A DNA stretch of 64,000 bases from the NCBI GenBank assembly GCA_041687475.1, contig JAWLBW010000001.1, forward strand, positions 4,703-68,702, in the 5' to 3' direction. Numbering within the stretch: the stretch's first letter is position 1; the number at the start of each line of letters is the position of its first letter. The notes beneath the pieces are model-generated. The model worked only from the letters and a program-made list of their open reading frames with translations. It was not told the DNA's origin and did no database searches. The stretch comes from a bacterium (GTDB lineage: Bacteria; J088; JAWLBW01). Position numbers and translations under genes: made by a program. Below are positions 4,931-10,774 of the stretch, piece by piece.

Positions 4931-6880
4931 TCAGCCACCGAGGGGGAAACCCTGGCCCTGGGCCGCGGCGGGCTGCTGCGGCGTGATGAAGGTTTCGACC
5001 TTGGCGCGGTTGCGGGCCGTCTGAATCCACGAGGTGAAGACGGCCTCGCGCTTCGACGAGAGAAGCTCGTTCGTCAGACCCTCGCGTTCCTGGTCGAATT
5101 GCTTCATGTCGGGCGCCGAGCGGTCTTTCAGCGCGACCACGTAGTAGGTGCCGTCGACCTTGAAGAGGCGGTCGGGAAGCGGGTTTGCAGGCGTCAGGCG
5201 GAAGGCCGCCGTCAGCAGGTCGGCATCCTGGCCGATTTCGGGAACTTCACCGCCCAGGCGGTTGAATGCTCCGGTTTCCTGCACCGTCAGCCGGGTGGCG
5301 GCCTTGAGTGAACCCTTCTCGCGGGCTGCGTCGAGAATGTCGGCGGCGCGGCTGGCCGCTACCACATCGGCACGCTCGTCGCGCAGCGCCTTTTCAACGT
5401 CGGCGCGAACTTCGTTCAAGGCACGGTCGCGGGCGGGTTCGACGGCGTCGACCCGCACGGCCACCTTGGTGGCGCCGGCGTCGATGAGCTTCGAGCTCTT
5501 GCCGCTTTCGAGTCCGAAGCCGGCCTCGAGCACCTTCTGGCCTTCGAGCACGCCGGGGAAGCGGCCGTTGCGGTTGAGCTGTCCGGTCTTCTGCACCTGA
5601 ATGCCGTACGCTTCGGCGACAGCGGTCAGGTCTTCACCCTTCGCGAGGCGATCGGCAATGTCCGACTGCGCTTCTTCGAAAGCCTTGGCGCCCTTCTGCT
5701 GCTTGAGCTCCGATTCGAGAACGGCACGCACCTGTTCGAGCGGCTTGACGCCCGCTTCACGGCGGTCGGTAACCTTGATGACGTGCCAACCGAACTGCGA
5801 GCGAACAGGCGCCGAAACGTCGTTCTTCGGCAGTGAGAAAGCCGCATCTTCAAAAGGTTTCACCATGCGGCCCCGGCCGAAGAAGCCCAGGTCGCCGCCC
5901 GACGAGGCGCTTCCGTCCTGCGAGTTCTTACGGGCCAGTTCGGCGAAGTCGGCACCCGAGCGGGCCTGTTCGGCAATGCCCTCGGCCTTTTTGCGTGCGT
6001 CTTCCCAGGCGGCTTCGTCGTCGCCTTCGACCTTGAAGAGAATGTGGCTCGCGCGAACCTCTTCGTCCTGCTGGAATTCATCACGGCGGGCTTCGTAAGC
6101 GGCCTGCAGTTCTGCGTCGCTCACGGTCTGCGTCTGGGCGAACTTTGCCGGCGAGAAAACGGCGTACGAGAAGGTACGACGCTCGGGCAGGGCGTACTCC
6201 GACTTGTGCGTTTCGTAGTACTCGCCGAGGTCGGCGTCGGTAAGCTTGACATCCTTACGCACGTCATCGGCCGATACGCCGACGAAGGCAAGGTTTGCCT
6301 TGTCGTTGCGGGCGATGAAGAGTTCGCGCAGCTGTTCGTCGGTAACCAGCACCGAGCTCTCGATCATCTGACGCAGGCGATCGATGGTCAGCGATTCGCG
6401 CACTTCCTGCTCGAAAATGGTCGGGGTCAGACCCGTGCCCGCACCCATGAGCGCGCGCTTGTAAATGTCGGGGTCGAACTGCCCGTTCGCATTGCGAAAG
6501 GCTTCGATGGAAAGAATGTAGTCGCGCACTTCCTGATCGGAAACGCGAATGCCCGCTTTGGCGGCCTCGGCCAGGAGAACCTCGCGTTGAACGAGATTTT
6601 CGAGGGCAAGTTGTTCAATCGGCAGTCGATCGAGCATTGCCTGATCGATCTGGCCGCCGAACTGCTGTTTATAGCCCTCGATCATGTTGTTCATGGCGAC
6701 GGCAAGATCGCGGCGATAGATCGGCTCGCCTTCGACGCGGGCGACAATCGAAGCGGTGGCAGAAGAATCGTCCTGCACGCTCGAGAGCACGCCAAAGCCG
6801 ATAAAGAAGCTGGCCGCGATGGCAATCAGCACCACCTTCGCGCCGACGCTGTTCCGGTAACGACGGATTTCGTTCAGCAT
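4931..6880 (-). CDS. ppiD: Periplasmic chaperone/peptidyl-prolyl isomerase of the PpiD/SurA family
   Basis: N-terminal TM anchor, long SurA-like chaperone region and a parvulin domain (ASHILFKV...GGDLGFFGRGRMVKPFEDAAF). Confidence 0.75.
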   Translation of the reverse strand: MLNEIRRYRNSVGAKVVLIAIAASFFIGFGVLSSVQDDSSATASIVARVEGEPIYRRDLAVAMNNMIEGYKQQFGGQIDQAMLDRLPIEQLALENLVQREVLLAEAAKAGIRVSDQEVRDYILSIEAFRNANGQFDPDIYKRALMGAGTGLTPTIFEQEVRESLTIDRLRQMIESSVLVTDEQLRELFIARNDKANLAFVGVSADDVRKDVKLTDADLGEYYETHKSEYALPERRTFSYAVFSPAKFAQTQTVSDAELQAAYEARRDEFQQDEEVRASHILFKVEGDDEAAWEDARKKAEGIAEQARSGADFAELARKNSQDGSASSGGDLGFFGRGRMVKPFEDAAFSLPKNDVSAPVRSQFGWHVIKVTDRREAGVKPLEQVRAVLESELKQQKGAKAFEEAQSDIADRLAKGEDLTAVAEAYGIQVQKTGQLNRNGRFPGVLEGQKVLEAGFGLESGKSSKLIDAGATKVAVRVDAVEPARDRALNEVRADVEKALRDERADVVAASRAADILDAAREKGSLKAATRLTVQETGAFNRLGGEVPEIGQDADLLTAAFRLTPANPLPDRLFKVDGTYYVVALKDRSAPDMKQFDQEREGLTNELLSSKREAVFTSWIQTARNRAKVETFITPQQPAAAQGQGFPLGG

Positions 6881-7099
6881 ACTGGCTCAGTTACCCCAAA
6901 GTGACAAGCAGAAAAAAGCATCCGGCCTTCCGGATGCATGAAAAGAACATAAGTATACTCAACCGCACAGGGGTTTTCCACAGGCGCAGAGCGGCGGCAG
7001 GCCGCGGGCTCGGGAGGGCGGCTCCGGGCGACCGAAGAAAAAGGCCTGACCGGCACGCAATCATTTGAAATCGCCCGAGGCCTCTGCTACCTTGGCTTC

Positions 7100-7513
7100 A
7101 TGAGTTCTGAGCGAACCGCCCATGTTGAATTAAGCGGCGACAGTGCCTTCTCAACCGTCTCTACCGTCGGCCCCCACAAGGTGCTGAACGATGTGCCGGA
7201 AAACGTAGGCGGTCGCGATCTGGGTATCACCCCCGAAGAAATGGTCATTTCGGCCTACGGCAGCTGCACCTCGATGACGGTGTTGATGTACGCCAGGCGC
7301 AAGGAATGGCCGGTCGAAAGGGTCGACGTCGACGTCAGCATGGAGCGGCGTCCGGGTCAGACGGCCAAGCTGACACGCCGCATTCGCCTGGTGGGACCTC
7401 TCGACGAGGAACAGCGTGCGCGCCTGCTGCAGATTGCCGACAAGTGCCCCGTGCATCGCATTCTCTCGCATAACGAATTGAATACGGTTCTGGAGGAAGT
7501 CGAACATGGCTGA
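7100..7513 (+). CDS. OsmC/Ohr-family peroxiredoxin-like protein
   Basis: 137 aa, OsmC-like fold with conserved Cys pair (SAYGSCTSMT...DKCPV). Confidence 0.75.
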   Translation: MSSERTAHVELSGDSAFSTVSTVGPHKVLNDVPENVGGRDLGITPEEMVISAYGSCTSMTVLMYARRKEWPVERVDVDVSMERRPGQTAKLTRRIRLVGPLDEEQRARLLQIADKCPVHRILSHNELNTVLEEVEHG

Positions 7514-7669
7514 AGCCACTGAAAACAACCGCGGACTGACGATCAAGCCCGTACACTTTCCCATGGTGGTCAAGGTAACCGCCGCCACCGTGTGGGGCCT
7601 TGGCGTCGTCGGCTCCGTTCTGGAAATTCTTTTCCAGGCGCACTGACGAAAAGCTGATGCTGAAGAGTG

Positions 7670-7697
7670 AAAAAAGGGCGCGCAGGCGCCCTTTTTT
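7670..7697. terminator. Bidirectional terminator between osmC and the ACC-deaminase-family gene
   Basis: AAAAAA-GGGCGC-gcag-GCGCCC-TTTTTT near-perfect palindrome. Confidence 0.55.
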
Positions 7698-7772
7698 CGT
7701 TCCGGGTTTTCTTGCTTCCGTGACGCAGAGCTGTCTGCACGTCGAAGATCGTCTGCTTCAGGGTCGTGTGTT

Positions 7773-8996
7773 TCAGGCCGACGCCGAAACCAGCGCGCGC
7801 AGCTCGGGCGGCAGATCGGCGGGGTCGCCCTGGGCAACCGGAGCCGAGTTGAAGGTGTTCCAGAAGAGCAGGGCGCCGCTGCGCTCGCGTGCCCACGCGA
7901 GAAAGGCGGCCATGGCTTTGGCCGTATAGGTCTGCTCGAGGGGAAAGTGCGGCGAGGCCCACTCTGCGGCGGCCAGGCCCTCGGGGGTCGGCTTGCCATA
8001 GCCCCCGCCGTAGAACCGATTCTCGACCACCAGGTCGTCGCTTTCGAGCGGAACGTCGGGCACGCTCGGGTCAAGGCTGCGCAACGCGCCCAGGGTGCGG
8101 TTTGCAAGGCGAAGAATGTTCCACCGGTTGGCAACGATGGGTTCGGTAATGCGCACGGCGACGATGCGCGACGGCAGGCCGGCAAGACGCAGGCCCACGA
8201 GCAGGCCGGCTGCCGTACCGCAGCTGCCCGACGCGACAAACACATAATCAGGCTGCTCGATGACGCCGGCCCGTACCTGTTCGGCGAGCTCGAGGCCGGC
8301 GTTGATGTGGCCGATATTGCCGAGCGACGTCGTGGCCCCCGCCGGAATGTAGTACGGTTTTTGCTCGTTCTGCAGCGAAATGTACGAGCGCAGCCCGCGA
8401 GCCACCGACGAAACGTAACCCCCGCCGTAGGTAATGTTTGCGCCTGCCGCCACATCGGCCAGCAGGTTACGGCGCACATGCGCGGTAACGGGCTGTTCGA
8501 AGAGGCAGACATCGACCCGCATGCCCAGTCGCCCCCCGTGAATGGCCGAGGCAAGGCACTGGTTCGAACCGAGGCCGCCCACGGTAAACAGGGCGTCGTA
8601 GCCCCCGAGCCGTGCTTCGGCCAGAAGGTGTTCGAGCTTGCGAACCTTGTTTCCCCCGTAAACCGGCGAAGTCATGTCGTCGCGCTTGACGTACAGGCGC
8701 GCGTCGCGCGAAGCCCCGGTGGGCAGCGGCAGGTCGTGGGCGGGGGTGGGGTAGGTGCCCAGCGGCATCCACGCCAGTCGGCCGCGCAGGCGCGGAAAAC
8801 GGTCAAGTAGTTCGCTACTTCGGCCTTCATACAGGGCCTCGACCCGTTCAGCCGGAAACCGCAGCAGCTTGTCGACTTCGTGGTTGTACCATGCGACACC
8901 GCCCACGCCCGCGCAGGCGGCGGCGCCGAGCCCCGTGCCGATGAACGCCCGCCGCGAGATGCTGCGCCCGTGGACCTGGTTCTCTCCATCGCTCAT
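7773..8996 (-). CDS. PLP-dependent ACC deaminase/D-cysteine desulfhydrase-family enzyme with a twin-arginine signal peptide
   Basis: 407 aa. Fold-type II PLP family pattern (YGGNKVRKLE, SGSCGTAAGL). The N-terminus SRRAFIGTGLGAAACAG is Tat-like. ATG at 8996 was verified by codon counting back from the stop. Confidence 0.7.
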   Translation of the reverse strand: MSDGENQVHGRSISRRAFIGTGLGAAACAGVGGVAWYNHEVDKLLRFPAERVEALYEGRSSELLDRFPRLRGRLAWMPLGTYPTPAHDLPLPTGASRDARLYVKRDDMTSPVYGGNKVRKLEHLLAEARLGGYDALFTVGGLGSNQCLASAIHGGRLGMRVDVCLFEQPVTAHVRRNLLADVAAGANITYGGGYVSSVARGLRSYISLQNEQKPYYIPAGATTSLGNIGHINAGLELAEQVRAGVIEQPDYVFVASGSCGTAAGLLVGLRLAGLPSRIVAVRITEPIVANRWNILRLANRTLGALRSLDPSVPDVPLESDDLVVENRFYGGGYGKPTPEGLAAAEWASPHFPLEQTYTAKAMAAFLAWARERSGALLFWNTFNSAPVAQGDPADLPPELRALVSASA

Positions 8997-9100
8997 AATC
9001 GATCTCTCCCGGCCAAAGTATAGCAGGTACGAGGGATCGGTGTCGGCAATCGGAGTCGGGTTACGGCTGGCCGGCGAACTTGGGCGAATGGCTGTCGGCT

Positions 9101-10093
9101 TCAGCGAATGGCTGTCGAAGGTTCGGCGGCCGCCTGCATGGTTCCCAGGGTCTGCACCATGCCGTCGGACTCTCTTTCCCAGACGAGCACGGTGCCCGCC
9201 TGCCGTCGCAGGCGCAGAAGGTCGCCGGCCGGCAATACGGCCACCCGGCGCGACAGCGGCGACCCCATGATTTCGTCGGCCAGCCAACTCATGGGTTCGT
9301 TGGGATCTGCGGGCGACTGCCAGAAGGCGCCGTAGTGTATGGGCACCATGACCCGCGCACCCAGCATGCGAAAGGCGGCCAGAGCCTGGGGCGGGTTGAT
9401 GTGGTGTCTCTCCCAACGGGGGCTGGGCTCCCTTCCCCTGACAGGTCCGATGGGAAGCAATGCCAGATCTATATGAGGAAACCGCTTGCCGATTTCCACG
9501 AACATGTCCGGGTTGTATCCGGTATCGCCGGCGAAATAGACGGTGAAGCCTTCGGCTTCGACAATCCAACCGCCGAAGGTGCCGCTCCACAGACCGTCGA
9601 ATCCAAGGTAGCCGCCCCAATGCTGCGCGGGCACGGCGGTAATGCGCGCCGCACGACCCTCGCGGTTGATGACCAGGCGCGATTGCCACCAGTCGAAGCC
9701 GAAGGTCGGTCGGGGCGAAAGCCAGGCCTGAAATCGTTTGCTGTCGGGGGGAAAGAAGACGGGCACCCCGGGGGCGAGTTTACTCAAGCTCCACGGATCG
9801 AAGTGATCCATGTGCGAATGCGAAATGAGCGCTACGTCGATGGGGGGAAGCGCTTCCGGGTCGAGCCCCAGGGCCTCCTTCCGCAAAAAGACGCCGCCCA
9901 GCTTGTGCGTGAAGAGTGGGTCGGTAAGAAAGCGGAACCCCTTGATGTCGACCCATACCGTGGCGTGCCCGGCTCGCACGACCCGCACGCCCTCGACGGG
10001 ACTCTGGGGTATCTGCGGACGAATGATCGGATGGCTGAGGCATGCCGCGAACATCACGGCAAAGACTAGCGGAATCAGTCGCACCCCCGGCAT
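9101..10093 (-). CDS. Secreted MBL-fold metallo-hydrolase
   Basis: HxHxDH motif (SHSHMDHFD) and a signal peptide MPGVRLIPLVFAVMFAAC. Confidence 0.7.
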   Translation of the reverse strand: MPGVRLIPLVFAVMFAACLSHPIIRPQIPQSPVEGVRVVRAGHATVWVDIKGFRFLTDPLFTHKLGGVFLRKEALGLDPEALPPIDVALISHSHMDHFDPWSLSKLAPGVPVFFPPDSKRFQAWLSPRPTFGFDWWQSRLVINREGRAARITAVPAQHWGGYLGFDGLWSGTFGGWIVEAEGFTVYFAGDTGYNPDMFVEIGKRFPHIDLALLPIGPVRGREPSPRWERHHINPPQALAAFRMLGARVMVPIHYGAFWQSPADPNEPMSWLADEIMGSPLSRRVAVLPAGDLLRLRRQAGTVLVWERESDGMVQTLGTMQAAAEPSTAIR

Positions 10094-10180: not shown

Positions 10181-10774
10181 TCAGGGCCGCACGGGCGGCA
10201 AGAGGCCGGCCCCGCTTTCGCGTAGATTGCGAATCACAAGAAACAGCAGCGGCACACCGACGAAGACCCCCATGCCCAGCATGGTAAGCACCCAGGTCGT
10301 ATCGTGCCAGACCCATGGCTTATCGCCCAGCGCGCGTGTCGCCGCTTCGGGATAATCGGCATGGCGTACCAGCACGAGAAAGCGCTGCAGCGCCGCTGCC
10401 GTGACGCCCACGAGCAAGACTGCCCCGACGGCCGGTACGGCCAGGGCCGACCGCGGCGTGTCGCCACGCACCAACGCCGCCGTGAGGCCGAACCCGAACA
10501 GAACGGCGAGGGGATACGACAACATGGTCAGCGCCGCCGCCCAGCCGGGCACCTGCGATGCATCCACATAGTACAGCCATGACCAGTCGGGCCACTGGGT
10601 GTAGAAGAACACCCCGGTGGGCAGAAAGATCAGAAAGGCGAAGAGCGCCGTCTCACGAAACCAGCGGTTCAGCCAGAGCGATCCGGCGCCGGCAAGCTGC
10701 CGGTGCGCGCTCAGGGCAAGAACGGCCCCACAGATGAGGCAAAGTGGTAAATCCTGGAAGACTGTGGGAATCAC
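10181..10774 (-). CDS. Hypothetical polytopic membrane protein
   Basis: Four or five hydrophobic helices. No motif recognised. Confidence 0.45.
   Translation of the reverse strand: MIPTVFQDLPLCLICGAVLALSAHRQLAGAGSLWLNRWFRETALFAFLIFLPTGVFFYTQWPDWSWLYYVDASQVPGWAAALTMLSYPLAVLFGFGLTAALVRGDTPRSALAVPAVGAVLLVGVTAAALQRFLVLVRHADYPEAATRALGDKPWVWHDTTWVLTMLGMGVFVGVPLLFLVIRNLRESGAGLLPPVRP

Follow-up and report, generated by a model that had tools for sequence, protein, structure and literature searches.

We analyzed a 64,000-nucleotide stretch of contig JAWLBW010000001.1 (hereafter the window, which always means this whole stretch) and found that it encodes a pyridoxal 5'-phosphate (PLP) enzyme of fold type II with a conserved twin-arginine (RR) motif at its N-terminus. 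The enzyme belongs to the family of DcyD and of the deaminase of 1-aminocyclopropane-1-carboxylate (ACC), and we propose that it is probably exported by twin-arginine translocation (the Tat pathway) and acts outside the cytoplasm, beside a metallo-beta-lactamase (MBL)-fold lipoprotein encoded by the gene next to it. This account draws on the motif and its conservation, the fold and catalytic residues of the PLP enzyme, the lipobox of the MBL protein and the synteny of the surrounding genes. In the list of open reading frames (ORFs), both genes lie on the minus strand where the original prediction had placed them, the PLP gene at 7773..8996 and the MBL gene at 9101..10093.

The PLP enzyme begins with a conserved twin-arginine segment

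The PLP gene, delimited by its ORF, its start codon and a match to Pfam PALP, encodes 407 aa. It initiates at an ATG at 8996..8994 and is preceded, with a 7-nt spacer, by the Shine-Dalgarno sequence GGGAGAG (9004..9010, minus strand), both read directly from the sequence. The N-terminus of the product, MSDGENQVHGRSISRRAFIGTGLGAAACAGVGGVAWYNHE (that is, MSDGENQVHGRSISRRAFIGTGLGAAACAGVGGVAWYNHEVDKLL), is exactly the one read in the original prediction. Residues 1-33 (8898..8996, minus strand) form a Tat-type segment that consists of an n-region, the motif S14-R15-R16-A-F-I-G20 (8937..8957) and a Gly/Ala-rich h-region, and the uncharged, Gly/Ala-rich stretch behind the RR is 22 residues long. Tat signals follow the consensus S-R-R-x-F-L-K and have an h-region that is Gly-rich and Leu-poor (PMC7317946). 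When the first 52 residues were compared to hidden Markov models (HMMs), TIGR01409 gave a score of 21.5 bits against a cutoff of 16.7, and two other models of Tat signals fell short of theirs.

To place this segment in its family, we took a census of the 120 best database homologs of the PLP enzyme, 57 of which have, at a nearly constant spacing (median 100 residues) ahead of the catalytic GGNK, an RR with an uncharged stretch behind it. The h-regions of these 57 RR homologs contain 29% Gly, 28% Ala and 14.5% Leu, and a basic residue is found within 12 residues past the h-region in every one of them. Among the 48 RR matches scored by position, the residue at -1 is S or T in 36, that at +3 is F or L in 44 and that at +4 is L, I or V in 41, which gives a family consensus of [ST]-R-R-x-F-[LIV]. 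A neighbor-joining tree of the catalytic domains contains one large clade made up mostly of RR forms, with small nested groups of short forms. The family has 1,212 members at E ≤ 1e-30 among the 1.8 billion cluster representatives searched. Among the top 150 homologs, more distant DcyD-like lineages (P0276, P0283, P0308, P0340 and P0278) bear classical Tat-plus-lipobox signals, such as FSRRQFVKLAATATVATPLAQGC. Because these signals occur in separate lineages, export of the DcyD-like family appears to have arisen or been kept repeatedly, in several lineages and in different forms.

From the consensus match, the HMM scores and, decisively, the conservation across homologs, we conclude that the twin-arginine motif and the Ala/Gly-rich stretch noted in the original prediction are, as far as sequence comparison can tell, real, and that Tat targeting of the PLP enzyme is likely. 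The original prediction had also allowed for a true start codon 3' of the RR. We ruled out such a start because the RR segment is kept at the protein level among homologs from several phyla, and a good Shine-Dalgarno sequence precedes the ATG.

Two further candidates were discarded. A 638-aa ORF that opens at GTG 9689 overlaps the MBL gene in another frame and was not retained as the PLP gene. A reading of the PLP enzyme as a Tat lipoprotein, with G-A-A-A-C28 as its lipobox, was set aside as a family feature, as the Cys is not conserved.

The PLP enzyme has the DcyD fold and catalytic core with an altered specificity pocket

Pfam PALP (PF00291) matched the PLP enzyme well above threshold (4e-25, 89.1 bits against a gathering cutoff of 35). 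Its matches in NCBIfam were to XcbE, CuyA, a D-cysteine desulfhydrase subfamily and ACC deaminase, all far under the curated cutoffs. The best of these scores (CuyA, 155 bits; XcbE, 134 bits) lie far below cutoffs of 450 bits, and the same holds for the DcyD equivalog models (TIGR01275, 130 vs 289; NF003030, 117 vs 429; NF003032, 104 vs 469) and for the ACC deaminase model TIGR01274 (103 vs 392 bits). The nearest solved structures by sequence are the Salmonella and Pectobacterium D-cysteine desulfhydrases and a Pseudomonas ACC deaminase, with alignments that start only at query residue ~58-77. An AlphaFold2 model built with 39 homologs has a mean predicted local distance difference test (pLDDT) score of 92, with values below 50 for residues 1-29 and confident structure from near residue 35. 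When this model was compared with the PDB using Foldseek, the top matches were DcyD (7ysk/4d8t) and then ACC deaminase, with a target template modeling (TM) score of up to 0.85. As the matches to DcyD and ACC deaminase start only at ~58-77, the model describes a DcyD/ACC deaminase-fold enzyme with ~60 extra N-terminal residues. Pfam PALP, the PDB sequence matches and Foldseek agree on fold type II and on the ACC deaminase/D-cysteine desulfhydrase fold, as originally assigned.

We mapped the active site through HMMER alignments to Salmonella DcyD (StDCyD; 4d8t/4d97) and Pseudomonas ACC deaminase (1rqx), taking the roles of StDCyD residues from PMC3344862 and the ACC deaminase signature Glu295/Leu322 from PMC4048297. 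The PLP Schiff-base lysine, Lys51 in StDCyD, is Lys117 in the PLP enzyme (codon 8646..8648, minus strand), located in the sequence GGNKVRKLE, and its column is invariant in our alignment A1. StDCyD residues Asn50, Ser78, Asn79 and Tyr261 correspond to Asn116, Ser144, Asn145 and Tyr333, Tyr287-Thr288 corresponds to Tyr357-Thr358, and Thr315 corresponds to Thr381. The catalytic set of Lys117, Asn116, Ser144, Tyr333, Tyr357-Thr358 and Thr381 is conserved, and the residues by which a Tyr would take the alpha-proton of a D-configured substrate, along with those for beta-elimination, are intact.

Two positions of this active site bear on the choice between ACC and D-cysteine as a substrate, and two others on specificity for D-cysteine. 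ACC deaminase residues Glu295 and Leu322 correspond to Thr358, which is placed opposite Glu295 in the 1rqx alignment, and to Thr381, which is assigned via StDCyD Thr315, the counterpart of Leu322 in the design of the T288E/T315L mutant. ACC deaminase identity, with ACC as the substrate, was excluded because the signature Glu295/Leu322 is replaced by Thr/Thr. In StDCyD, Gln77 is needed for turnover of D-Cys, and a Q77H mutant is inactive on this substrate (PMC3344862). The corresponding residue of the PLP enzyme is Gly143, which is invariant in the family (alignment A1), and StDCyD His80 is replaced by Gln146. Canonical D-Cys specificity is doubtful for such a pocket, and given the Gln77-to-Gly difference we propose that the substrate is probably something other than simply D-cysteine.

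When the PLP enzyme is set beside DcyD (Salmonella StDCyD, 4D8T; Pectobacterium, 7YSK), it has the same fold (target TM 0.85, 27-28% identity) and equivalents of the Schiff-base Lys, Asn50, Ser78, Asn79, Tyr261, Tyr287-Thr288 and Thr315. It differs in its 60-residue N-terminal extension, which holds the Tat-type signal and two extra helices, in the invariant Gly and the Gln found in place of Gln77, a D-Cys determinant, and His80, and in its score on the DcyD equivalog model (117 vs 429 bits); DcyD itself is cytoplasmic. AcdS (Pseudomonas, 1RQX/1TYZ) shares the fold family and the Lys/Ser/Tyr catalytic core, but its Glu295 and Leu322 are both Thr in the PLP enzyme, which is the desulfhydrase state. 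CuyA, a cysteate sulfo-lyase, and XcbE, an enzyme of bacterial coenzyme M biosynthesis, are alike in belonging to the DcyD-like superfamily and acting on sulfur-containing amino acids. To our knowledge, neither has an export signal.

Fusion relatives and the fate of the signal

Among the closest relatives of the PLP enzyme are fusion proteins of ~590 aa with 50-56% identity (P0004, P0005, P0008-P0012 and P0015, from loci L083, L088 and L089). Eight of these are full-length, and P0003 is a truncated form. The N-terminal part of the fusions is a 185-aa redox domain related to SelL and AhpC-TSA, with a GCPICR (CxxC) motif and without a signal peptide of its own; the NF040769 model gives 111.9 bits on this domain against a cutoff of 120. 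The redox domain is followed by an internal SRRxFL and Gly/Ala stretch and then by the PLP domain. With a signal-less 185-aa domain ahead of it, the RR segment is internal, and the fusions must, judging from this layout, be set N-in/C-out, with the redox side staying cytoplasmic and the PLP domain on the other side of the membrane. It follows from its internal position that the RR segment would act there as an internal signal or membrane anchor, and that a cleaved, soluble periplasmic enzyme is not assured. The order redox domain, RR segment, PLP domain would be an unusual architecture for a Tat substrate. We know of no described Tat substrate in which a cytoplasmic redox domain, an internal Tat segment and an exported PLP domain are joined.

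These relatives bring up a variant of Tat export in which only what becomes of the signal is different. The segment could be a Tat-dependent signal-anchor that stays uncleaved, as in bacterial Rieske proteins, and tethers the PLP domain on the periplasmic face, with the SelL-like domain of the fusions on the opposite, cytoplasmic side. Cleavage in the eight full-length fusions and P0003 would split the two fused domains, and the model confidently places a conserved Y-x-x-H/R-x-V/L-N/D sequence, found right past the h-region, within the fold. There is neither a variable linker nor a conserved A-x-A site, the RR lies at a fixed distance of ~100 residues from GGNK, and the segment matches the Rieske Tat-signal model UCR_Fe-S_N weakly. 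Working against an anchor, the free h-region is only about 14-17 residues long and very Gly/Ala-rich, and summing Hessa values over a 19-mer in a simple way gives about +3.4 kcal/mol, a poor value for a helix that is to span the membrane stably. Signal peptidase I could also act on small residues, A27-C28-A29 / G30 among them, and these make up a possible, non-conserved cleavage site in the PLP enzyme. Internal Tat-dependent segments do have precedent in actinobacterial Rieske and related proteins, but there they come after Sec-inserted helices and not after a soluble domain (PMC3471235, PMC5449189). We regard an uncleaved signal-anchor as a real possibility, if short of an even chance.

The neighboring MBL-fold protein is predicted to be a lipoprotein

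The MBL gene (330 aa; 9101..10093, minus strand) ends 104 nt upstream of the PLP start. Its product was assigned as a NAPE-PLD-like MBL-fold hydrolase from its Pfam match (Lactamase_B_2, PF12706; 8e-29, 101 bits vs a cutoff of 27), from its best PDB match (human NAPE-PLD, 4QN9; 6e-26, residues 32-260) and from the sequence HSHMDH at residue 92, an HxHxDH metal-binding motif. Its N-terminus, MPGVRLIPLVFAVMFAAC, ends in the lipobox MFAAC, with Cys18 encoded at 10040..10042. Only 16 orthologs at 47% identity or more are found before a sharp drop in score, and those with complete N-termini (P0121-P0134) keep both HxHxDH and the lipobox, the latter mostly as L-[TAS]-A-C-APR. Because its signal ends in a lipobox that is conserved in orthologs, we predict that the MBL hydrolase is a lipoprotein and not a free secreted enzyme. 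The MBL fold and the export signal proposed for this upstream protein in the original prediction were borne out, but its description as simply secreted was not. The protein resembles NAPE-PLD-type and UPF0173-type MBL hydrolases in its Lactamase_B_2 architecture and HxHxDH motif, and differs from them as a 330-aa bacterial lipoprotein. The source organism is presumably a diderm, given its lipoproteins and an adjoining gene for a PpiD/SurA-like chaperone.

Gene order around the PLP gene in relatives of the window

Two loci from relatives, L081 and L090, in which the PLP enzymes are 60% and 52% identical to that of the window, contain genes for a MaoC dehydratase, a ~190-aa membrane protein, an MBL lipoprotein and the PLP enzyme. 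Past the PLP gene of both lies a small ORF on the opposite strand, which is accompanied by OsmC in L081; L090 ends before OsmC would be reached. In the database, the PLP protein of L081 (P0002; 6001..7326) is called at 441 aa, and this call shares 59 nt with the end of the MBL gene. Translation probably begins at the internal MADESHSPQLSRRRFLG instead, with an N-terminus that resembles that of the PLP enzyme in the window.

Between the MBL and PLP genes, L082 and L083 have two inserted genes, for a ~200-aa protein and for a GMC flavoprotein. The region encoding the GMC flavoprotein, together with the ~200-aa protein in L082 and L083, spans 3871..6004 in L082, 3864..6004 in L083, 1..1089 in L088 and 2..406 in L089. 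Only L082 and L083 extend far enough upstream to show the partner of the GMC protein, and L088 and L089 contain the GMC-PLP junction only. The GMC stop and the PLP start overlap by 4 nt in L082, L083 and L088 and are separated by an 18-nt gap in L089. The ~200-aa proteins of L082 and L083 begin ...SRREFLRRSFGGSLLLAAGGLLPAGC, which is a Tat signal plus lipobox, and the GMC flavoprotein carries a Cys-rich C-x6-C-x3-C stretch. The best PDB match of the GMC flavoprotein is the catalytic subunit of the B. cepacia FAD-dependent glucose dehydrogenase (FAD-GDH), a protein that reaches the periplasm by hitchhiking on a small subunit with a Tat signal (PMC6719666). By analogy, the arrangement in these relatives independently supports an extracytoplasmic setting for the PLP gene. 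It is like the gamma-alpha pair of B. cepacia FAD-GDH in combining a ~200-aa Tat protein with a GMC protein in L082 and L083, and unlike it in that the relatives showed no cytochrome c subunit; the pair is also absent from the window. Searches of the window by tblastn for the GMC dehydrogenase, the small subunit and the SelL-like domain found none of the three.

We also looked at gene context from the side of the MBL gene. One locus (L091, encoding the MBL ortholog P0133) keeps the MaoC, membrane protein and MBL genes with no PLP gene downstream. Because L091 has kept the MBL gene without a PLP gene, the conserved gene order is suggestive of a link between the two that is restricted to a clade and not obligatory.

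The 197-aa polytopic membrane protein of the window (10181..10774, minus strand), which has no Pfam or NCBIfam match, is encoded between the MaoC dehydratase and MBL genes. Orthologs with 44-59% identity occupy the same place in L081, L082, L090 and L091. Its position is kept in five loci, including L091, which is without the PLP gene.

Several other features were recorded around the PLP gene. The spacer between the MBL and PLP genes has a weak consensus match to a sigma-70-like promoter (CCGACA-18-TATACT with a TG; 9017..9046, minus strand). Downstream of the PLP gene, and between it and the convergent unit of OsmC and a small ORF, the sequence contains a strong 17-bp GC-rich hairpin with A- and T-runs on its flanks (7665..7702). 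This hairpin is probably a bidirectional intrinsic terminator that closes the PLP gene on the minus strand and the OsmC/small-ORF unit on the plus strand. The small ORF of this unit (7506..7646, plus strand) encodes a conserved 46-aa product (MAEATENNRGLTIKPVHFPMVVKVTAATVWGLGVVGSVLEILFQAH) that looks like a single-pass membrane peptide, and its first 8 nt are shared with the end of the OsmC gene (7100..7513). Orthologs of this ORF are found behind OsmC in L081, L082 and L089, and one lies at the matching place in L090. In L085, a second PALP-family gene lies directly upstream of a distant RR homolog and a gene for an M20/M28 peptidase overlaps downstream (5836..9759), a setting unlike that in the clade of the window.

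Discussion

In the account that we favor, the PLP enzyme would be made, folded and loaded with PLP in the cytoplasm and then carried across the cytoplasmic membrane by the Tat pathway via S-R-R-A-F-I-G and the Gly/Ala-rich segment. On the outer face, the enzyme would be either freed by signal peptidase or tethered by the uncleaved segment. Its most likely activity there would be alpha-proton abstraction initiated by Tyr357, with beta-elimination/deamination of a D-configured (or D-Cys-like) amino acid to yield a 2-oxo acid, ammonia and the leaving group. The lipoprotein MBL would share that compartment, where it may provide or act on a related substrate. Tat dependence, cleavage, the substrate and coupling to the MBL are the parts of this account that we infer.

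Several observations weigh against this account. Two models of Tat signals score below their thresholds on the PLP enzyme (Pfam TAT_signal, PF10518, 16.7 vs 22.7 bits; UCR_Fe-S_N, 17.1 vs 24), a few homologs of the long form lack an RR in their hydrophobic N-terminus, and a search of the 64-kb window for a Tat machinery gene (tatA-like) found none. The lack of a canonical, conserved A-x-A cleavage site, the AlphaFold2 helix that runs from residue 29 straight into the folded domain, and the fixed distance from the RR to the active site are each as compatible with an anchor as with a cleaved signal. In the active site, the residue that the Salmonella enzyme requires for turnover of D-Cys, Gln77, is replaced by Gly143. 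Gene context is also limited, in that the MBL and PLP genes are linked in one narrow clade only, a linkage that is broken in L091, and the more distant RR-type homologs in L084-L087, which were searched for shared context, have unrelated neighbors. The suggestion in the original prediction that the two proteins make up a single route is supported by synteny within that clade, but not by the MBL gene without a PLP partner in L091 or by the neighbors of the distant homologs.

An alternative to export is that the PLP enzyme stays in the cytoplasm and acts on cytoplasmic substrates like an ordinary DcyD, with the N-terminal segment as a peripheral or N-out tether or as a vestigial motif. Canonical members of the family do reside in the cytoplasm, and the tree has short forms, which lack the extension, nested among those with an RR, but the fusions fix the N-terminal side inside and hence the PLP domain outside, and independent Tat-plus-lipobox versions of the family exist. 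Basic residues also lie behind the hydrophobic stretch, so that the positive-inside rule alone is ambiguous, and Pfam TAT_signal is under threshold; nevertheless, conservation of the full [ST]-R-R-x-F-[LIV] exceeds the needs of a simple anchor, and the surrounding genes encode extracytoplasmic proteins (the lipoprotein MBL and, in relatives, a Tat small subunit with a GMC protein). We consider a cytoplasmic location quite unlikely. Periplasmic PLP racemases use Sec-type signals. Sec export of an unfolded PLP enzyme that acquires its cofactor in the periplasm is very unlikely, even though such racemases exist and even though Tat and Sec signals share part of their hydrophobicity range and Sec can be engaged by many Tat signals (PMC7317946). 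The reasons are the strong conservation of the RR consensus, an h-region rich in Gly and poor in Leu, a basic residue in 57/57 RR homologs at the place where the Sec-avoidance residue of Tat signals would sit (PMC7317946), and the need of PvdN for bound PLP to be competent for transport (PMC6206403).

There is precedent for PLP enzymes that leave the cytoplasm by Tat. In fluorescent pseudomonads, PvdN and PtaA, which function in pyoverdine tailoring, are exported by Tat in a folded state with PLP bound, and PvdN with a mutated active-site lysine stalls in the membrane (PMC6206403). These two enzymes offer a mechanistic precedent for our account, and they are direct precedent for loading of the cofactor before Tat export, as the original prediction had supposed. 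They are unlike the PLP enzyme in their chemistry and genomic context and are not homologous to it; we take both to be of fold type I (aminotransferase-like) and unrelated in sequence. Periplasmic broad-spectrum PLP racemases have been described as well. The statement in the original prediction that periplasmic PLP lyases are unusual holds, but with PvdN and PtaA exported via Tat, and with the periplasmic racemases, such enzymes are not unknown. Our search for literature linking Tat export to the DcyD/ACC deaminase family found incidental co-mentions only. The mechanism, Tat export of a PLP enzyme, is already known; what varies it in a new way is the enzyme family, the redox domain to which relatives are fused and the gene setting.

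When these observations are read jointly, the DcyD-like proteins with an RR might be widespread extracytoplasmic beta-lyases of the D-amino-acid type, the clade of the window might possess a periplasmic catabolic module of an MBL protein, a GMC protein that hitchhikes on a Tat partner and a PLP lyase, and the fusions might be two-compartment proteins. We put this broader reading forward tentatively, with only a modest chance that all of it is right. Among the candidate substrates of such a module are an amino-sugar acid (D-glucosaminate, for instance), the amine of a lipid head group and an S-substituted D-cysteine. If the reading is true, each fusion links a cytoplasmic SelL-like CxxC domain to an exported PLP domain through an internal signal-anchor of the Tat type. 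The fusions would test Tat insertion of a signal preceded by a folded cytoplasmic domain.

For genome annotation, our analysis means that RR-bearing proteins of this family should not be called D-cysteine desulfhydrase or ACC deaminase by transfer. An unassigned enzyme family, which may act on periplasmic D-amino acids or sulfur compounds, gains a handle that is experimentally easy. A conserved Tat signal on a DcyD/ACC deaminase-type fold would mean that extracytoplasmic, cofactor-loaded PLP lyases are more common than the two Pseudomonas examples suggest.

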